Positions 39,404 through 55,314 of a stretch of DNA of 64,000 nucleotides are shown here, piece by piece. Location: NCBI GenBank assembly GCA_010093815.1, contig ML996571.1, one strand, 5' to 3'. Origin of the DNA: Pseudovirgaria hyperparasitica. Lineage: Eukaryota. The notes beneath the pieces are model-generated. The model was given only the letters and a program-made list of their open reading frames with translations. It was not told the origin of the DNA and made no database searches. The stretch's first letter is position 1; the number at the start of each line of letters is the position of its first letter. The position numbers were made by a program, and so were the translations under genes.

Positions 39404-41650
39404 ATGTGGCTGCTCAACGTTGCCACGCTGGAGCTGGAGGCATTTTTCGGGGACGACAGGCCAGAGTATGTGATCCTCTCGCACACCTGGGAGGACGACG
39501 AGGTGCTCTTCCAAGACATGGCCTCGCCGTCACGGGCGCAGAAGAAGAAGGGCTGGGTGAAGATTGATCAGACATGCAAGCGAGCGGCAGAGGCAGGCTA
39601 CACACACGCGTGGATTGACACCTGCTGCATCGACAAGCGCAGCAGCGCGGAGCTGAGCGAGGCCATCAACAGCATGTTCCAGTGGTACTGGGCTGCGGCA
39701 GAATGCTGGGCGTATCTCGCTGATTTCGCACTGCCGGAGGGCTGGCAGCCGCCGCGGACGTTCCAGACCAATATGAGCGCGTGGACGGCCGAGTATCGGG
39801 AGCTGGTGGACAAGTTCCTGAGGACAAAGTGGTTTAGGCGCGGATGGACGCTGCAGGAGCTGATTGCGCCGCAGCGGGTGACGTTTTGGAGCAGGGACTG
39901 GGTGGTGTTTGGCACGCGCACGATGCTAGGCCGGGCGATATATGAGAGGACGAATATCCCGGAGGAGGCGCGGGATCGGCTGCAGACGTATAGTATCGCG
40001 GAACGCATGGGGTGGGCGGCGAGGCGGAAGACGACACGGGTGGAGGACCAGGCGTACTGTCTGCTTGGTATCTTCGACATCAACATGCCGCTGCTGTATG
40101 GGGAGGGCAAGAAAGCGTTCCGCCGGTTGCAGGAGGAGATTATCAAGTCCAGCCTCGACCACTCTATCTTTGCGTGGGGCGTAGACAGCCTGATGGCGAC
40201 CGAGAATGAGTTGGTGCAGAACAGCCAGAACGCCAGATCGTTGTCGTCGTTATCGTCGAGTGTCTTTGCGTCGCACCCGGCGTCCTTTCTTCCCAACGCC
40301 CGACCAAACGACGAGATGCCCACGCGCTACGAGCTTTCAAACATGGGTCTCTACATCAAGCTGCGCATCATCTACATCTGCGCCTGGGACAGCGACGCGC
40401 AGTGGAAGGAAGCTCTCGGCCTCCTCAACGCGACCTCGACCTCGACCTCAACCTACGACGACAACGCCTCAGACATCGCAATCGCGCTGCACATCCACAG
40501 CCAGTCCGGCCTCGCCCTCATCCGTCAGCCCAGCCGCTTCACAAAACGGTGTTACCTTGTCCCCGTCCCTTTCCGCGACGGCGACAGCATGCTAGCCAAA
40601 TCCGACGGTATCCAAATCTCCAACCGCGCCATCCTAGCCCGCCACTTCCCGCACCTCAGAGAGCGCGACGACCGCGTCCCGACCGCGCTGCTCGCCGCGC
40701 GTGTGCATGTGCAGGTCGGGCCGGGACTGCACATTGTCGACACGTTTCCGCAGCCGTATGTCCGGCGTGTCGGGATGACCCGGATCTTCACCCTCGAGGG
40801 GCAGGCGGAGGACTGGCTTGGTGCGTTTCTGGTGCAGTGCGAGGACGTGATTGGGCGTGTTGCCCTGCTTACGGTGCGTGGTGGGCTACTTCCGGTGCCG
40901 GTGGGAGGAGGAGGGGCAGAAGGAGCAGTACAAGAAAAAGGAGAAGAACTGCACGCCCGACGTCCCCGGCTGCAGCTGCGGTACCTTGAGACTTCGGAGC
41001 TGCTGGACGAGCGGGGTCTGCCCTGGTACTACCACTTCCGCAACGACCGCAACGACCGCAACGACCGCAACGACCGCAACGACGAAGCAGAAGAAGACGT
41101 GGACTTTGACAAAACACACGCCTTCGACAGCTCCACGGAGATGATGCAGGTGCTGCTGCTGATGGAGATGGCGACAACAAGCAAGAAAATAAGCCTGAAG
41201 TTCTCGTCGCCGCAGTGGGAGTGCGATTCGAGTCCGTATTACCTGGTTAATGTCGATATGGTCGTGGCGGATGATGATGAAGGGGGTGAAGGCGGTAAAG
41301 TGGCTGAGGTGGCAGAGGGTGGTAAGCAGGAAAAGGACAAGGTAGAGAATAGAGATGCAGGCTCGACTGAGCCGCAGCGCTTATTCCATGACTTGTTCTG
41401 GGTGGCAGGGCGGGCGCGGGATGCGGCATCGAATGCGGGGCCAAAACCGGAATCAGAACCGGATGCGAATGCGGGTTCCGACGATGAAGACGCTGAGGCA
41501 GGGGCTGAGGCAGAGTCTGAGGCAGAGTCTGAGGCAGAATCTGAGGCAGAGTCTGAGGCAGAGGTTGAGGCAGAGGTTGAAGCTGAGACCGGGACTGAGC
41601 TTAAGTATGATGTGGATGTACTCTTCCCGCCGTACCTGTACGATCTGTAA
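39404..41650 (+). CDS. HET-domain protein with long unassigned C-terminal region and acidic repeat tail
   Basis: YVILSHTW, WIDTCCIDKRSSAELSEAINSMFQWY, WFRRGWTLQELIAP, RKTTRVEDQAYCLLGIFDINMPLLYGEGKKAFRRLQEEI. Confidence 0.93.
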   Translation: MWLLNVATLELEAFFGDDRPEYVILSHTWEDDEVLFQDMASPSRAQKKKGWVKIDQTCKRAAEAGYTHAWIDTCCIDKRSSAELSEAINSMFQWYWAAAECWAYLADFALPEGWQPPRTFQTNMSAWTAEYRELVDKFLRTKWFRRGWTLQELIAPQRVTFWSRDWVVFGTRTMLGRAIYERTNIPEEARDRLQTYSIAERMGWAARRKTTRVEDQAYCLLGIFDINMPLLYGEGKKAFRRLQEEIIKSSLDHSIFAWGVDSLMATENELVQNSQNARSLSSLSSSVFASHPASFLPNARPNDEMPTRYELSNMGLYIKLRIIYICAWDSDAQWKEALGLLNATSTSTSTYDDNASDIAIALHIHSQSGLALIRQPSRFTKRCYLVPVPFRDGDSMLAKSDGIQISNRAILARHFPHLRERDDRVPTALLAARVHVQVGPGLHIVDTFPQPYVRRVGMTRIFTLEGQAEDWLGAFLVQCEDVIGRVALLTVRGGLLPVPVGGGGAEGAVQEKGEELHARRPRLQLRYLETSELLDERGLPWYYHFRNDRNDRNDRNDRNDEAEEDVDFDKTHAFDSSTEMMQVLLLMEMATTSKKISLKFSSPQWECDSSPYYLVNVDMVVADDDEGGEGGKVAEVAEGGKQEKDKVENRDAGSTEPQRLFHDLFWVAGRARDAASNAGPKPESEPDANAGSDDEDAEAGAEAESEAESEAESEAESEAEVEAEVEAETGTELKYDVDVLFPPYLYDL

Positions 41651-45753: not shown

Positions 45754-48700
45754 TGTGGATTCTTCGTGTCGTTGCTGTTGTTGTTGTTGGAGAGTGTACT
45801 CGCAAGTCTATCTTCGTGTCGTTGCTGCTGCCGTCGACGAGGATACTCGCAAGTCTAAGATCGCGTAGTCCTGTCGAAGAAGTCGTGTCGAAGAAAAAGA
45901 GGAAGAAGAAGAAGCAGGAAAAAGTCACGGCGCCATAAATCGAAACTTTTCCTCCCAAGACCTTCAGACCCAGATTCGACACGAACAAGGCAAGCGAAAG
46001 CACACAATAACACACAAAGATGATTAATGCTCTGTTCCAGTTCCCAAAAAAGGGGGTGTCGGTGCCAATGTCACTCACTCCCGGGCAGCAAGCGAGGTTC
46101 GGCGAGTGACGGACGGACGGATCGGGTTTAAGGGAGGACGACGACGAGACGTAGAGGAAGGGGTAGAGTAGAGCAAGGGCAAGGCTGATGTTGTTGTTGT
46201 TGTTGTTGTTACACACCATCTATATATATACACAACCCCGGAGGTGTATACATAATATATACATTCACGCCAACATCTTCGGCGATCAAGATTGAATCAG
46301 ACAAATTGAAGAAGCTAGGCAGGTAGGTGTAGTAGGAAAGGGGGGGGGGAGGGAGCGAACTGCGTCATGCGTCATGCATGAAGGGTATGTGTGGTGGATG
46401 CTACAGCAGGGGTGATGCTTGCGTGTTGACCGGCGTTCTTCTGCATGTTCTACGGATTCGATTGTATCTCAGGATCTGCAATATCTCGATATCTCTCCCG
46501 GTAAGCAAGCAAGCAAGCGGGTCAGCCCGTGCGTAAGATGAATAGACAGATGAGTCCAAGATACATGGTAAACAGATGGATAGTAAATAGAGGGATAGTC
46601 CCAAGCACCTGGCACGTGCTCAGTGTCCGTGTCAGTGGAAGTCCGTGAATGGCAAGAACGACGCACGCAAGATCGTCGGTTTGCTGGTGCGTGCCCGGTG
46701 CTGCAGTCACGTGCTGCGTGTGTGTGCGCAAGCCTAATTAGCCGCATTAGGCAGTTACGGTGGCGCAAACCTTAAACCCGCCGTCCGGGCTGAAGAAATG
46801 ACGGATTCGGCGAATCAACATTGGCCTTACAAATACATAGCTACATACTACTGTACATGTACAATATGTGAGCGATCGCGTGAGTGCAGCTGTTTATTTG
46901 TATTTATTTTATTTGCATTGCTCGGCGAGTATGGGATGGAATGGAACGGAATGAAGAGAGGGAGGGCTGTGGATATCCGCGGGGTTGGCTGGCTGGTCCC
47001 TCATGTTGTCAAACTCCTCGACACCCCCAGTCAGATCCCAGGTCCTTGTCCGGATGGCATGATGAATATCCATCAGCCCATCCATCTACCTGTCCATCCA
47101 TCCATCTGTTAATCTGTTAATCTCACACCTTATCCATCCATCCACCCCGAGACCCGGCGCGCGGGTCGTCGCGCACACAGCACTTGATACCTGACAGGTG
47201 TGAATTGCTGTTTGTCTGTCTGTCCGTCTGTCTGTCTGTCTGTCTATCCTCTATTCTTCCATCCCATCTCCGGAGCTATAGACAAGACAGTAAGAATGAA
47301 GCAGCTACTAAGCCAGCCAAGGCATCTCCACCCGCCCACACCGCCGCCGGACGTTGGACCTCGTTTGCGGTCTCGCGTGTGATTGGCGTATCACTTTCCT
47401 TGGCTCCACCATTCTGTAGGTACTGTCCCTAATGTATGTCCCTTTGTCATGTACATACATACATCAAACACAAGCAACGACGACAGCGACAACGTGCAAT
47501 AGAATGTACACGTCGCTTTTTCGGTCTGTGCGTGTCATTGCTGTTGTCGTGCTGTGCGGTCTGTGTGCGATCTGTGCGTGCGTGCGGAAGGATTGATGGA
47601 TCGCATCGCATCGTATCGTATCGCATCGAGTCAATCCAAATACATATCTCGATAACTTGGATAATCACAGATGGCCGGATTAATGGCCAGGACGCCTAAC
47701 GTGCGTGCAGTGCCATGCAGTGCTGCAGTCTCGTCCAGCCTCGCGTCGAGTATCTCGAATACGTCGGCTTGCAGTGTGCATTGCATCGTGGCCAAGTGTC
47801 CGTTTGCGTCGTGCTGCTTCGTAAGGCAACCAGTCTCTCTTCTTTGCCAGCGGTCGTTGTGATCTAGACTTGCTGCAACGACTGCATGCTGCTGCGAACA
47901 ACGGCTGGGCTGGACATGGGCATGGGTATGGTATCGACATGGATATAGGTAAGGCTGCGAGGGTAGGTGGGTGGGTAGGTAGGTAGGTACATACGACGAC
48001 TTGGACTACTCGTCATGCAGGTCCGCGTTTCTCTATACTTTCTTTTGTCTTTTTATCTCTTTATTTGTGTATGTGTGTGCTATACATCTAGCATTGAAGT
48101 GCTGCTGGATGTAATACTATGTTGTAGGAGTAGACTAGACGTCGGTGTAGTAGTGGCAGTAGAAGCTGTAGAAGCAGTAGTGGTAGCGGTAACTACCCAC
48201 TAGGCACTCACTCCCTGAATCAACTAGCCCTCTCTACTCCTACTATTACTACTACGACTCTCTACCCATCCAGCATATCAAATAAATATCACATCACATC
48301 ATCACAACCTATCAATCCATCAACCCATCCATCCATATACGCAAAAAACATGACTCTACCACGCATTACCCAGCAGCCAGCCCAGCAGCCCTTTCAGCAG
48401 CCAGCCAGCCCAGCAGCCAGCCATAGTAACACCACATCCACCACATCCACCACTCCACCCCACACCACGCAAGGACACAGCATCTTGATTTGACTCCCCC
48501 CGCATATACTGTACGTCTGTATGTATGTACATGTATGTCTATATGCATGCATGTACATAGGGCAGACCACAGCACACAGCACACAGCACACAGCACATAC
48601 CACGCGAAATCCAACTTTCTCATTCCTTATCTCTCTCGTCTTGTTGCCAATCAATTGACCATTCATTCACCAATCATCCAGTTGATCAATCACTTAAATC

Positions 48701-49860
48701 AATCGACTTATCAATTAATCAGTTTAACCAATTAATCAATTAATCAATTACCCACCCACTCACCCACTTCCTCGAACCAACCCTTCATCTTCTACCGTAC
48801 CATCCCATCCTCACTCAAACTCAAACACAACACTCGAAACCTGGAGAATTGGCTCGAGTCAGTACGTGAGTATGTGAGTAAGTAAATAAGTAGAGTTTGA
48901 AATGGTGAAACGCGGATGGTGAGACGTGAGATGACTACTTGGTATTGCGCTGCTCGTGTGGACATGACTCGTGCTGCTTGGTGCGCGTGCGTGGAGTGGA
49001 GTGGAGTGTGCGCGTGCGTGGTGCGTGGTGCGTGGTAGTGCGTGATGGCTGGGATGGATGTAGTGTGCGCGTGCATGGGTGTGGGTGGATGTGGAGAGGT
49101 ATGTGGAGAAATGGAGAGGTGGAGAGGTGGAGGACATGCGGGTGCAGACATTACGATCACTACTACTACTCTAACGACTACAGACTTGGATCAAATACAC
49201 CACGACACGACACGACACACATACACACATACATACACATACATACTCCCATCTCATCCCATCCCATCCCATCCCATCCCACCACCAAATCCCCCCTCAC
49301 ACTCCCCAGACAGCATGTATCTCGCCCCGTCCCATTGGCTGGAGTGCTGTATTAGGGTGTTTGCCGTGGTGGGATGATATATAAGTACATGTCTATATTA
49401 CGTCCCGTCACTCGAGACTAGGAGGGAGGGCGATGGATGGAAGGCCGACTGGACTGGCTGGGCTGCTTCAATTGTAGTTTATGAGGTGAGGTCGTGATGT
49501 GAGTCTACGATCCGAGTTCAGCCTCTGAAGAGGACAAGATATAGATGCGACCATGGCTGCTGCTGTCTGTCTGTCCACCGAGTATCCGTGATGAGAGTGT
49601 CGGAGTTCACCTGTCTTTGTATCAAAGTGTACGTTAGGTCTGTTGTAGATACTGCTCGCAGTGTATACAGAGTGCTTTGTATGAAGTGAATCGTGGTATT
49701 GTTTATTTGTTTGAGATGTCGACTCCTTGCTTGATGCTCATCGACTGACTGCAGCCTGCTGTCTCTAGTGACAGCTCCGGTATTTGTATATCGTCAACTG
49801 AGACTTTACTTCTCCTACTCCTCCGCTCATGCTTTATAGACTTCAGTCTCCATCTACGAG

Positions 49861-51480
49861 ATGTCTTATACAAGATCCCCCAGTCCCTTGTCTGATGGTG
49901 TTGCGGAGCATGCGGGTGTGGACTTGACTACTGATGGGAGTGGCTCGTGTCAAGATGCGGATGAGATGGCTACTCTTGTGGATTTCTCACATCGAGGCAC
50001 GGATGAGATGGCTACGCTTGCGAGTTTATCGCGTCAAGACACGGAAGATTCGGCTACTGATGGGAGTAACTCGTGTCAAGATACGGATGAGATGGCTACT
50101 CTTGCGAGTTTATCGCTTCAGGACACGCAAGAAATGACTACTACTCCCGCCCCCTCGCACCAAGACACGGCAAAAGAGCTTCAAAGCGTGATATCCAACG
50201 CAGAGCTCGACACTTCCACCAAAAACCACATGAATCATCTCGTCCAAACCATGCAGACTCAGCACCAAACCATCTGCCCAGCATGCCTCGAGCCAGACAC
50301 TCACTCAACAGCCAGCAGCTCCGACCCGGAGTCGACTTCCCGAAAACGCAAGCACAGTCAAACCACCCCCTCTACCCCCGAGTCTGGCACCACCACCACC
50401 ACAAGACCCAAGAAAAAAAGCAGAAAACATCCTCAAAATACAGTATTCAGTACCGCTTATGTTGGCAGGTTCAGACGCTGTAATAATGACGACTGGTTCT
50501 CCCGATTCGCCGTCGGCAACCCGGAGCCCGTTCATCTTCCTGCGTATGGTGCCGCAATATCCAAGCGAGCAGGCAATACCCACCAGGGAGAGTATCTCGA
50601 TGATCTGGCTGAGCAACACGCCGAAGCGGGCATGCATGGCCAGCCACGCCCGCTCACGATCTTTGGCTCTACACTTGCTCCGAAGCCGTCCTTGCCCAAA
50701 CACAAACATCCAGAAGACGTCGCAGCAATGGTAAACTATCTGACCAATCCCGACCCACACCTCATCTCCAAAACCCCCACCGAAGAGGCCATCCACTCCT
50801 GGTCCACCATGCCAACAGACTACCCCAAAATCATGGTCCGTCTCTGGGACCACAACTCCAAGGCCCACATCGAGGACGGCAAGCAAGGCTTCCTCTCCCA
50901 GTGCGGCGGCGTGCCCCTCGACACCCCCTCCCTCCGCACCTACTTCCTCCAGTCCCACGTCGACTTCCGCAGCCGCGCCGCTACCCCCTTCATCTCCGTC
51001 ACCTCCGACCCCTCCAACGCCGCAAACTTCCACGTCCGCCGCCTCAAAGCCCGCCAGGAGAAGCGCAGCCGTGTCCCGGTCGTTCGTTTCACGCTCATGA
51101 ACTGGGCCGCCCGCGTGGCGGAGGGCATGCCTACTCTGCACATGGGCCGCGAGCTCAGGCACTACAACGTCTACAACCCCTATGCGTACTCTGCCTGCAG
51201 CGACGCGATTGAGAAGTTTGAGTGGCTTGCGCTGTGGTGTGTTCCGCCGTCGCAGATCGTGGGGACGTGGTTTGTGGGGGATATGGAGGATTGGATGGCG
51301 AGGCGTGATGAGGGTATGAGTGGCTCGATGAGGCCGGACGCGAGATGGCTTTGGAGCTTTCATTTTGATGCTTGGTGGAAGCTGGTTGCTCTGCCGGCTT
51401 ACGAGGCGCATGAGCGGACGAGGCTGGGTGGTGGTGTCCCTGAGCATATTGAGAATTGCGGCTGCTGCGGCCATTCTTGA
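49861..51480 (+). CDS. Uncharacterised protein with repeat/basic N-terminus and C-terminal cholera-toxin-type ADP-ribosyltransferase-like domain
   Basis: 539-aa ORF with IMVRLWD (R327), LQSHVD (H366), PFISVTSDP (S379) and FEWLALWCVPPSQIVGTW (E454). From memory it resembles fungal DUF7587-type proteins. The CDS is likely; the function is inferred. Confidence 0.72.
   Translation: MSYTRSPSPLSDGVAEHAGVDLTTDGSGSCQDADEMATLVDFSHRGTDEMATLASLSRQDTEDSATDGSNSCQDTDEMATLASLSLQDTQEMTTTPAPSHQDTAKELQSVISNAELDTSTKNHMNHLVQTMQTQHQTICPACLEPDTHSTASSSDPESTSRKRKHSQTTPSTPESGTTTTTRPKKKSRKHPQNTVFSTAYVGRFRRCNNDDWFSRFAVGNPEPVHLPAYGAAISKRAGNTHQGEYLDDLAEQHAEAGMHGQPRPLTIFGSTLAPKPSLPKHKHPEDVAAMVNYLTNPDPHLISKTPTEEAIHSWSTMPTDYPKIMVRLWDHNSKAHIEDGKQGFLSQCGGVPLDTPSLRTYFLQSHVDFRSRAATPFISVTSDPSNAANFHVRRLKARQEKRSRVPVVRFTLMNWAARVAEGMPTLHMGRELRHYNVYNPYAYSACSDAIEKFEWLALWCVPPSQIVGTWFVGDMEDWMARRDEGMSGSMRPDARWLWSFHFDAWWKLVALPAYEAHERTRLGGGVPEHIENCGCCGHS
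49930..50170 (+). repeat. Coding 42-bp (14-aa) tandem repeat, ~5-6 units with a 126-bp higher-order period
   Basis: QDADEMATLVDFSH / RGTDEMATLASLSR / QDTEDSATDGSNSC / QDTDEMATLASLSL / QDTQEMTTTPAPSH; 49930-49978 is nearly identical to 50056-50104. Confidence 0.85.
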
Positions 51481-52310
51481 GGATCACATTCGGAGGGGCC
51501 GCTCGTCCTTGCAGGACTCCTTGTGCAGCATTTTGTCGAGGTTCGTTTGATCTTCACTTTTTCTCTTTCCAGTCCTGCTCATCACTCTTTTCCGCAATCC
51601 TTCACCGTTTCGTCAATTCCATTTTTCCCCTTTGCTTGGGTAGGTCGATTTCATTGGCGCGTTGCGTCTTCCTTGTAAAGTTTCGATCTGCTTTCTCGAG
51701 TCTACTATGTCGGTAGTAGCCATTTCCTTATATTTCTGGGTCTATTTAAAGTCGATTAGCACAGTTTGTCTCGGCGTACATTAGCCTTTAGATCAAACTT
51801 TTTCAAATCTACTTAGGGGTTAGTAGAGCATCTCGTCATATTTCTGGGTCTGTTGAAGGTTGGTTCTTACATGCGTATCAGTATCCGCTATCATTCAGAT
51901 CAGCATACAAGAGCAATAATAGCGTCGAACGTTGGGGTTAAGGACTGCATTCTTAATTGTGCACATGATCTGGCACTAGTACCCCGACCTACCTTGATAG
52001 CAGCTTGAATGGGTATCACAGACGCCCTAGCACGAAGATAGATCTAGACAATTCTACCAATCTTCTCCACGTCCTCCCGATGTGTATCCTGCCATGTCAA
52101 TGCATGACAACCCCATACCCCTCCACGTGACCAGCCAGCTCCTGCACACCCCACCTCCTGACCAAAATAAAACCCCACAAACTCTCCTCATCAAATCCAC
52201 ACACACGTACATACATACATCTCCAGCCTTCCATCTCCCACCCACCTCAATCCCCACGTCCCACACCACCACCACCCCAACAAAACAAACAAATCACCAA
52301 ACAAACAAAA

Positions 52311-52762
52311 ATGCCCCACCCGCAAAAATACCGCCTCTTCTTCCACACGCCCCCCGCCGCCCTCGAAGCCTGCAAAGCAGCCATCTTCAACGCCGGCGCG
52401 GGCCGCTACCCGGGCGGCAAATACACAGAGTGCGCCTGGGCCGTGCTCGGCCAGGCCCAGTTCCGCCCCGGTCAGGCTGCGAAGCCGCATCTGGGCGTGG
52501 CTGGACAGCTGGAGCGGACGGAGGAGGTGAGGGTTGAGGTTGTGTGTTTTGGCGAGGAGGTTGTGAGGGAGGCGGTTGGGGCTTTGAGGAGGTGAGTTTG
52601 AGGGTTTTTTGGGGTTTGGGGGGTTGTTTGGGGGGAGGGGGAGGGGAGGGAGGGGGTGGTTGTGGTGATGATGATGATGATGATGATGCTAATCTATGGG
52701 TTTGTAGGGCGCATCCGTATGAGGAGCCGTCGTATGGGGTGTATGCGTTGGCGGATTTTTGA
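52311..52762 (+). CDS. Small YqfO / NIF3-insert-like (PII-fold) protein, 2 exons
   Basis: KAAIFNAGAGRY...YTECAW...GQAQFRPG.AKPHLG..GQLE..EEVRVE, intron 52592-52707, then AHPYEEPSY. Confidence 0.88.
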
Positions 52763-53427: not shown

Positions 53428-55314
53428 ATGGCGGCGTCCCAAAGGGCCTACCAATACGGTAGCATGCCCTCTCACACTTCGTTCCGAACTCTAGAACTCT
53501 TGCCTGGACGCCGAGACGATCATATCTCGTGTGTGCTGCATCATGTAGACTGGTCACACCCACCAGAATATGAAGCGTTATCCTATGCTTGGGGAGATGC
53601 AAAGGATGTAGAGTGGATTACATGCCAAGATAGAGAGTTAAAGGTGACTCGAAGCCTCTATAACGCACTCAGACATCTTCGCCTCCAAGATAAGTCTAGG
53701 ATGCTGTGGGCAGATGCCATCTGGTAAGATGGGCTCAAGTAGTTCTATCGCGACCGTCGTCGACTTGTTCGGCCCTCTGCTAGTCAGACTGTCTCTCATT
53801 GTCTGACACCTCTTAGTATCAACCAGTCCGACGTTCCTGAACGCAGCAGTCAGGTCACGCAAATGCTGAGGATATACCAGACTGCAAAAACAGTCATCGT
53901 TTGGCTCGGGCCAGACTCAGAGAAAGGGCAGGCCAAGCAAGCCGTGAATGCCATCAGGACCATATCGGATTTCATCTGCCAAAGGGTCGGTATCCCCGTC
54001 TCCGACCTGAGCTCAATCAGCGATGTCTACCAAGAAGTCATCTTCAAGAATAAAAAGTCGCTTCCACTACCGAATGACTGCGATTTTGTCACCGGCAGCA
54101 TGTGGCAAAGCCTCGTATGGTTCTACTCCCATCTTTACTTCACACGCGTGTGGGCCATTCAAGAGGTAAATGCCACGACAGAACGTGTGGTCCATTGTGG
54201 GCACGAAACCGTCGAGTGGGATCGTGTGGCACTGGTAGCTGGTTATATAATCATGGAAACCGCTTCGTCAAAGAGCCTCGGTTTCTCCACGGCAAAGTGC
54301 TGGTTCGCAGCCATCATGACAACGGAGCGTATACGACAGCCCAAAAACTGGCTGTTCATGCTGTATTTGACGTCCAATTTCAACAGCACGGACCCGAGAG
54401 ACCAGATATACGGGCTACGTGGGCTGATGAGGCTCTCGGGCGGAGACGCCCCTGAAGGGCTGTTGCATCCCGACTACGCAAAGTCAGATACAGAAGTCTA
54501 TCGCGACTCTGTTGAAGCCGGATTGGTCCATTTCCAGAACACGGATGTGCTGCTGTACCGCAAAGGAGACGAAAGCCCGTCTTGGATTCCCCGCTGGGAC
54601 CGGCCCATGCTGTTTCGCAACCCCTTCCGATTTGGAAAAGCGCTTCCATGGAGACCTGCTGGTCTTACAAAACCCGTCTGGACTATTGACAAGGAAGCAA
54701 ACTTGCTTTCCCTGTCGGGCTATACCATTGATTGTATTAAAGATACTGTACCGTATAGAGAAAGTATCTTCGGCAATGCAATGATCGAGTCGGACGAGGG
54801 GAGGGAAGAACTAGGCAAACTATGGCAACAGATACTAACGACAATGGAGCGAAGTTTCCGACAAACTCCATTTGATGCTTCCATACTCACCGCCGCGGCA
54901 ACATCTTTCTCTTTTGGCCTAGATGAGAACAGCGACCCCACCAATGAACGTCTATTACTACACAAGTTCATCGCTTACCTGAGACTGATTCTTAGCAACG
55001 AAACTCTCAACAAATACATACCGCAGAACCTAAGCGAGGAAACCGAGTACGCCAACGGCCTCCTCTTCGGCAAGCCCGTCTGGGACTTTCCATACCCGGA
55101 ATCCAGCTTCTTCCTTACCGCAACTGGAATGGCGGGATGCTGCGTCTCGACGACACAAGCTGAAGATGTCGTATTCGCCCCTTTGGGCAGTACATATCCT
55201 TTCGTGCTACGCCGTCATGGTGATTGCTATAGTCTCAGGGGCTTCGCGTTCGTGTATGGCATGATGCGGGGGGAGCGGGTAGGGCGCGAGGTCGAAAGTG
55301 TTACGATATGCTAG
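53428..55314 (+). CDS. HET-domain protein, HET-6-like architecture, 2 exons
   Basis: FRTLELLPG, YEALSYAWG, LWADAIC|INQ (intron 53724-53816), ERSSQV..MLRIY..AKTVIVWLG, YFTRVWAIQEV, TDPRDQIYGL, PSWIPRW and a C-terminal PFVLR...GFAFVYGMM.GE block. Confidence 0.93.

Follow-up and report, generated by a model that had tools for sequence, protein, structure and literature searches.

A DUF7587 protein of Pseudovirgaria hyperparasitica with a predicted R-S-E ADP-ribosyltransferase fold

An open reading frame (ORF) for a protein of 539 amino acids (aa), a long-type member of the Pfam family DUF7587, was found at positions 49861-51480 on the plus strand of a 64,000-nucleotide stretch of Pseudovirgaria hyperparasitica DNA. 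This stretch (hereafter, the window) corresponds to G000:C7:248001-312000 of a 35.4-Mb genome in 122 contigs (G000). No intron was seen in the ORF. The gene content of the window was typical of a filamentous ascomycete and included an Xrn-family gene, Uso1, a class I tRNA synthetase, Sfi1, a P450 and two HET-domain genes. The original prediction described the product as a non-secreted protein with patches resembling nuclear localization signals (NLSs) and a cholera-toxin-type ADP-ribosyltransferase (ART) signature. The residues that it named (R327, H366, S379, K452 and E454) and both basic patches were all present in the quoted contexts. The features of the locus are collected in Table 1.

Table 1. 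Features of the DUF7587 locus; positions are those of the window, and fractions are counts in aligned relatives
Feature	Position	Strand	Evidence
ORF, 539 aa	49861..51480	+	open reading frame; X3 contig spanning 49745-51808, gapless, no letter altered
Degenerate repeat of 42 nt (14 aa), at most 6 copies	49921..50170	+	acidic disordered N-terminus, aa 1-97 with pLDDT <50
Predicted two-helix hairpin, aa 100-137	50158..50271	+	pLDDT 86-90 over aa 101-130
Basic patch 1, RKRKH, aa 161-165, NLS-like	50341..50355	+	sequence; enriched in relatives
Basic patch 2, RPKKKSRKH, aa 182-190, NLS-like	50404..50430	+	sequence; enriched in relatives
DUF7587 (PF24494), aa 322-473, predicted ART catalytic core	50824..51279	+	30.1 bits, cut-off 27; folded unit ~aa 308-522
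R327, strand 1	50839..50841	+	141/142; matched by range start to Arg7 (cholera toxin) and Arg10 (CARDS toxin)
R359, start of the His-bearing helix	50935..50937	+	149/149, invariant in own and sister clade
H366, end of the helix preceding the S-x-T strand	50956..50958	+	144/149; distant branch 111/118
S379-V-T381, STS-like motif on strand 2	50995..51003	+	S 148/149; T or S at 381 in 131/149
Basic helix and loop following the S-x-T strand, including R398; net charge +6 over aa 384-408	51010..51084	+	R398 141/149
E454, predicted catalytic glutamate, start of a core strand	51220..51222	+	76/78 in own clade; 118/118 in distant branch; model position
C-x-C-C motif, C-terminal	51457..51468	+	36/78 in own clade vs 1/69 in short clade
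62-nt intron spliced from an antisense transcript, GTAAGA..CTAAC..TAG	51809-51870	-	runs X3 and X4; absent from DNA run X1
Possible 3'-untranslated-region intron (GT..AG) of the sense transcript, weak	51541-51881	+	single contig at depth 8.6, its shorter side 28 letters long

In the full-length structural model, the disordered acidic repeat region was followed by the helical hairpin, a disordered linker holding both basic patches, moderately confident helices (aa 226-295), and a confidently predicted domain at approximately aa 308-522. The C-terminal motif extended to C-x-C-C-G-[H/Q] and stood mostly a few residues before the stop codon; a metal-binding or lipid-anchor role is possible for it. 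An N-terminal CxxC was discarded as a motif because it was present in only 4 of 54 long relatives.

The match of the C-terminal domain to DUF7587 exceeded the curated cut-off and covered profile positions 3-144 of 146. This membership in a large ascomycete family had been missed by the original prediction. A phmmer search of 1.84 billion representative proteins returned 199 matches at E≤0.001, of which the top 150 were aligned and served as the basis of the conservation counts, in which the denominator is the number of aligned proteins having a residue at the given column. DUF7587 was matched by 126 of the 135 relatives scanned. The family was found across many Pezizomycotina genera, and the P. 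hyperparasitica genome carried at least six loci (five by the Pfam model, including the query, and L008). The most conserved columns were, in order, R359, S379, R327 and H366, and the query had the consensus residue at all 20 most conserved columns. At the E454 column, Glu was present in 100 of 147 aligned relatives, His in 36 and Gln in 5, and the complete R-H-S-E set occurred in 95 of the 150 proteins.

A tree of 147 domain cores (three short fragments were dropped) contained two clades, and their split had SH-aLRT support of 100 in an 88-sequence tree. The clade of the query comprised 78 proteins with 25-41% identity, mostly with long N-termini; Glu was retained in 76 of them. The sister clade (69 sequences) consisted of short proteins with His (36), Glu (23) or Gln (5) at the Glu position, and one of its members is a paralogue from the same genome (L003:1153-2067, G000:C6) in which His replaces the catalytic Glu. 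The R-H-S-H set, found in about half of the short clade, may support a different chemistry. Overall, R327, H366 and S379 were 97-99% conserved; E454 was conserved within the clade of the query, but the Glu position was not in the sister clade.

A more distant DUF7587 branch was collected with the paralogue L001 as a seed. In the best 120 of its 136 matches, which were aligned, Arg was present in 102 of 103 proteins, His in 111 of 118, Ser in 112 of 119 (within S-W-T-S-S) and Glu in 118 of 118; hhalign paired the R, H and S positions of the two branches with a probability of 72%. One protein of this branch, P0238 from Talaromyces, was fused to ankyrin repeats, a layout that occurs in fungal conflict proteins. 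A word-index search found the query alone among 457 candidates and no fusion among 5786 longer candidates; this is weak evidence against fusions since the method missed close relatives. A TniQ match (E 0.005) was discarded.

Of 21 long-type relatives that were looked up, 12 had an organism name and 9 had none. All 12 belong to the Leotiomycetes, two of them by confirmed assignment. The host itself appears to belong to the Dothideomycetes, judging by the source of a protein identical to one of its paralogues. The query was the first branch of the long clade in one tree (SH-aLRT 79) and lay within a five-member group in another. It may have been acquired by horizontal transfer from Leotiomycetes, a possibility to be read with these two differing placements in mind.

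The fold of the domain was predicted by AlphaFold2 on aa 307-539 with 135 sequences, which gave a model with a pLDDT of 92.6 and a pTM of 0.89. In this model, R327, S379 and E454 each occupied a different strand, and H366 was the last part of a helix; in the full-length model, the strands were 324-329, 377-381 and 454-458, the last beginning with E454. A Foldseek search yielded eight matches at E≤0.001, all of which were pertussis toxin S1 chains (best E 4.8e-5), followed by Escherichia coli PltA (EcPltA), DarT, cholera toxin A1, TreX/TreTu and scabin. When 48,161 chains were scanned independently, the leading matches were EcPltA (Z 9.5, root-mean-square deviation (rmsd) 2.9, 130 residues aligned), pertussis S1 (Z 9.3) and TreX (Z 8.1), and three rows reached Z≥8 by the scan's own count. 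Judging by their titles, all of the top 17 rows are ART-fold proteins. According to the tool, Z values below 8 are by themselves common; the weight rests on the uniformity of this list.

Re-alignment gave Z values of 9.2-10.2 for the pertussis S1 catalytic subunit, 9.7 for EcPltA, up to 8.4 for Tpt1, 8.1 for heat-labile enterotoxin LT-IIb and 6.9-7.7 for cholera toxin A1; NAD-bound pertussis S1 was aligned over 126 residues with Z 10.1 and rmsd 2.6. ESM Atlas searches agreed with an ART fold, although feature scores below 0.9 count as leads only; the third structural row was pertussis toxin S1, below the naming threshold of the Atlas. A viral fold library contained no match at E≤0.001. Among the nearest non-fungal look-alikes in the Atlas were unnamed Bacillota clusters (273, 366 and 387 aa; TM score by query up to 0.61), which could represent a bacterial sister family.

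The query domain is therefore predicted to have the fold of R-S-E ARTs. Of the features of the R-S-E clade, the core fold (in the model), the strand-1 Arg and the S-T-S-like motif on strand 2 were found, and E454 corresponds to the strand-5 Glu, a spatial equivalence judged from the order of the motifs and one range end rather than from coordinates. The starts of the alignment ranges placed R327 on Arg7 of cholera toxin and Arg10 of CARDS toxin, and the end of the CARDS range placed E454 on Glu132 if the alignment is ungapped (numbering as in PMC8120803 and PMC8640204). H366 was in the expected order between the Arg and Ser motifs and may be the counterpart of the active-site His of pertussis toxin. 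Thus, the predicted signature stood above chance, with R327, H366 and S379 conserved and a fold matching R-S-E transferases.

In its narrow sense, the description "cholera-toxin-type" did not hold. The structural check proposed earlier recovered an ART fold, but the best match was pertussis S1 and not the A subunit of cholera toxin or heat-labile enterotoxin, scabin or pierisin. The profiles Enterotoxin_a, Pertussis_S1 and Scabin-like were matched by none of 135 family members at E≤0.01; the query was not listed against the PF01375 profile at E≤0.1, and the PF02917 profile was likewise unmatched. The E-x-E of cholera toxin and heat-labile enterotoxin A (Glu110/Glu112, arginine acceptors) was absent, the query having K452 at position -2 from the glutamate. 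No binding (B) subunit gene was present among the 20 window ORFs scanned, the rest of the genome lying outside this search. The block around E454, said to align with the cholera toxin block almost residue for residue, occupies a homologous position. However, part of the likeness comes from letters that few family members share (A457 was present in 7 of 146, S464 in 6 of 144 and Q465 in 19 of 144 proteins) and that are mostly private to the query copy, so that the close match is partly luck.

The -2 residue was indeed neither a fixed Glu nor a fixed Gln: it varied in the family (E 39, K 27, R 17 and D 12 of 146) and was Glu in 25 of 78 proteins of the query's own clade. Aromatic residues were present in relatives at -4/-3 from the Glu. 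Since the -2 residue of pertussis toxin is non-essential (PMC9079181), this variability is compatible with activity. Because the position is variable, the Lys of the query rules out the classes with a fixed E-x-E or Q-x-E but is otherwise hardly informative about specificity.

Comparison with known systems placed the query closest to pertussis toxin S1 (7ski, 7sky; PF02917) and E. coli PltA (4z9d), with Z 9.2-10.2 and rmsd 2.6-3.9. It shares with them the order of Arg, His, Ser and Glu as well as a -2 position at which Glu is not required. Unlike them, it is fungal and apparently intracellular, with 12-16% identity, no Pfam match to them and no signal peptide, and it additionally has an invariant pair of Arg residues, a C-x-C-C tail and an N-terminus that is long, disordered and basic. 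The R-S-E fold was also shared with cholera toxin and heat-labile enterotoxin A1 (PF01375; Z 6.9-8.1, R327 in register with Arg7), but the query lacks E-x-E, and none of the 135 DUF7587 members matched PF01375. Such folds can act on nucleic acids, as is known for scabin, pierisin and ScARP (guanine-N2 DNA ARTs; PF22596) and for DarT; scabin and pierisin matched with Z 6.3-7.6 and DarT with Z 5.4-6.0. The scabin motif of W155, Q158 and E160 (PMC8120803), that is, the Trp..Gln-x-Glu of scabin and pierisin, was absent from the query, and the PF22596 profile gave no match. The Rhs toxin domains TreX and TreTu (Z 7.9-8.1) are, by their entry titles, bacterial secreted toxins with immunity proteins. 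Consequently, by profile and motif, the protein is a member of DUF7587 and not of the cholera, pertussis or scabin families, and it is R-S-E ART-like by predicted fold and residues. Within DUF7587, a family without a functional name in the search output, it belongs to the long-form clade with basic patches and the C-x-C-C tail.

The list of structural matches also bears on the idea that NAD+ is cleaved and that water or a small molecule receives the ADP-ribose (an NADase, a phosphorylase, or a Tpt1-like phosphate transfer), with NAD+ depletion or a soluble signal as the outcome. The same fold evidence fits this scheme: Tpt1/KptA chains matched with Z 7.4-8.4, MbcT/ParT-type enzymes appeared further down the list, the -2 position is not conserved, and ART-fold RES enzymes phosphorolyse NAD+ (PMC9503650). 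However, in RES enzymes the R-S-E triad is replaced (PMC9503650), and it is intact in the query. Tpt1 is an H-H-h enzyme (PMC8120803), an active site that is not present in the query, where R-S-E residues stand instead; there was no Pfam match to it, and its alignments comprised fewer than 100 residues (91-99, as against 126-140 for pertussis S1). An NLS-type signal and a conserved basic helix fit a macromolecular acceptor more easily, and this scheme is considered rather doubtful.

As had been noted, the query has no hydrophobic signal peptide (best N-terminal 9-residue hydropathy 0.6). A strongly hydrophobic window (hydropathy ≥2.5 in the first 35 aa) was found in 0 of 135 Met-starting relatives, three of which reached 2.2, and in 4 of 116 proteins of the distant branch; this hydropathy test is crude and uncalibrated. 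The NLS-like patches recurred: windows with four K/R in five residues upstream of the domain were present in 45 of 60 relatives with long N-termini, where shuffling predicted 15.9, and in 3 of 90 relatives with short ones, where it predicted 3.4. The distance from patch to domain varied from 40 to more than 300 residues, as would be expected of a linear signal within disordered sequence. Judging from these sequence properties, the protein is likely non-secreted and would act inside the fungal cell.

A toxin that reaches a host or competitor cell by unconventional export, with the basic patches addressing the nucleus of the victim, was considered as well, the nearest solved structures being bacterial toxins. 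PF01375-type ARTs are predicted to be secreted in other fungi, having been found in secretomes of Magnaporthe and Beauveria (PMC12099005, bioRxiv 2021.01.25.427855). The named long-type relatives include plant-associated members of the Helotiales. However, DUF7587 is leaderless, unlike those secretome-derived proteins, no delivery or binding domain was detected by Pfam in 135 members, and the family is spread across many Pezizomycotina genera. Such a toxin is very unlikely.

Taken together with the predicted fold, these data lead to the reading that we hold to be slightly better than an even bet: a non-secreted predicted R-S-E transferase, likely nuclear, would mono-ADP-ribosylate a macromolecule, and a nucleic acid or chromatin-bound acceptor is likelier than protein arginine. 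If the domain works as pertussis and cholera toxins do, NAD+ would be held by R327 and S379-x-T381, E454 would promote the loss of nicotinamide, and H366 would help to position or activate the acceptor. More tentatively, the basic patches may carry the protein into the fungus's own nucleus, and R359, R398 and the basic helix may grip a polyanion, so that one ADP-ribose would be moved from NAD+ onto a nuclear macromolecule. A nucleic-acid or chromatin acceptor is favoured on account of the basic patches, R359 and R398, and the basic helix; the segment aa 392-408 had a net charge of +3 or more in 96 of 148 aligned proteins and of -3 or less in none, with the windows picked after the alignment had been seen. 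If this reading is right, a nucleic-acid acceptor has roughly an even chance, and a non-arginine protein side chain takes most of the remainder. A wider proposal is possible but remains tentative, namely that DUF7587 is an overlooked endogenous R-S-E transferase family whose long clade ADP-ribosylates DNA or RNA in the fungal nucleus (a domesticated toxin fold producing a nucleic-acid or chromatin mark), the His- and Met-type paralogues being altered-chemistry or decoy copies.

Several observations weigh against nuclear transfer to a macromolecule. Identity to the toxins was 12-17%, and profile searches against solved structures in the Protein Data Bank reached no ART, so that the link to ARTs is structural only. 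The register was taken from range ends rather than from residue pairs, and the range end of pertussis entry 6ro0 puts E454 on Glu129 only with a gap. The ARTT motif, aromatic-x-x-[E/Q]-x-E (PMC8120803), was missing from the query, in the model of which a helix occupies this place with Lys at -2. The segment preceding the Glu was atypical, E451 being present in 0 and F453 in 1 of 145 other proteins, and the sister clade frequently has His instead of the catalytic Glu. The count of basic patches is inflated by the kinship of the sequences, and the patches can be RNA-binding or nucleolar elements instead of import signals. The lean regarding the acceptor is itself weak, as R359 and R398 could simply bind the phosphates of NAD+. 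Furthermore, the paralogue L008 (L008:28-2151 = G000:C7:312807-314930), a long-type protein approximately 15 kb from the query with two classical basic patches including PPKKRK, carries Met in place of both Arg and Ser with the Glu kept, which indicates that the family tolerates loss of the triad. L008 grouped with a Hymenoscyphus protein (SH-aLRT 91) and sits between housekeeping genes, one RRP4-like (exosome) and one GPI8-like.

Transcription of the locus was assessed with runs X3 and X4, which derive from one sample of a kind not on record. They behave as RNA because their contigs were spliced at the introns of neighbouring genes, where DNA run X1 was unspliced. One X3 contig covered the entire ORF unbroken, then skipped the minus-strand intron and ran to 52022. 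The splice joint with the strongest support here is thus antisense, and the ORF-wide contig is no proof of a sense mRNA, a further point against the nuclear-transferase reading. These data show transcription of the locus and the presence of an antisense transcript; the sense mRNA of the DUF7587 ORF is weakly shown. The antisense transcript, which is spliced, runs towards the 3' end of the gene or overlaps it. An antisense ORF of 389 aa beneath this transcript (50305-51474, minus strand) had no Pfam match and was discarded as probably a shadow of the domain, which is rich in G and C at third codon positions (GC3 0.79).

These data are relevant to the suggestion that the query is catalytically dead, serves as an NAD-binding scaffold or is drifting as a paralogue, possibly silenced by the antisense transcript (a pseudo-enzyme or silent copy). 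The replacement of Glu by His, Gln or Asp in 43 of 69 sister-clade proteins, the loss of Arg and Ser in L008, the unusual pre-Glu segment and long branch of the query, and the existence of the antisense transcript are in line with it, and secreted pseudo-ARTs have been proposed in M. oryzae (bioRxiv 2021.01.25.427855). However, 539 codons have stayed open, the consensus is kept at the 20 most conserved columns, Glu is nearly invariant in the query's own clade despite 25-41% identity, and the domain pLDDT exceeds 90. An inactive copy is accordingly viewed as unlikely, and the active transferase remains the preferred interpretation.

Four ADP-ribosylation writers are described in fungi in section 5 of a 2026 review (PMC13720257), namely two PARPs, Tpt1 and a sirtuin, none of the R-S-E type, and more may exist; according to the same source, fungi have several eraser families with little-known substrates. 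Some ascomycetes and basidiomycetes carry an R-S-E toxin domain in which the motif RxDxR is found (PMC3482391). DUF7587 has R-x-x-D-x-x-S instead, although the supplements of that paper could include these proteins. Full-text searches found no mention of DUF7587 or PF24494, and no paper on the family was among those listed by topical searches; the Pfam/InterPro description, the clan or Aravind 2015 could already link the family to the ART clan. The query likely represents an intracellular branch of a known enzyme superfamily. If the transferase interpretation is true, a non-secreted R-S-E family across Pezizomycotina, with at least six loci in one genome, would add a class of fungal writers, a kind of ADP-ribose writer so far undescribed in fungi, and these writers would give the fungal erasers candidate substrates.

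The surroundings of the ORF looked variable, with HET genes, the P450, an AMP-binding enzyme, a DUF7025 AAA+ ATPase and an alcohol dehydrogenase, and with housekeeping genes on both sides of this stretch. HET-domain genes lay on either side of the ORF (39404-41650 and 53428-55314), an arrangement that might suggest a killing or signalling partner of these genes in non-self recognition. However, HET matches in the genome number at least 77, and no consistent HET linkage was observed among the paralogues; of the five other DUF7587-like loci, L008 alone lay within approximately 12 kb of a listed HET match, which is the same HET gene as that of the query. A partnership of this kind is thus highly improbable. 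For neighbourhoods in other genomes, a metagenome scan gave one contig of 2.7 kb, too short for context.

Upstream of the ORF, approximately 3.6 kb (46200-49860) was microsatellite-rich and without an ATG-started ORF of at least 120 aa. Downstream, a small two-exon gene for approximately 110 aa was located at 52311-52762 on the plus strand; its exon 1 had no convincing Pfam match, and its intron (52590-52705) was spliced in runs X3 and X4.

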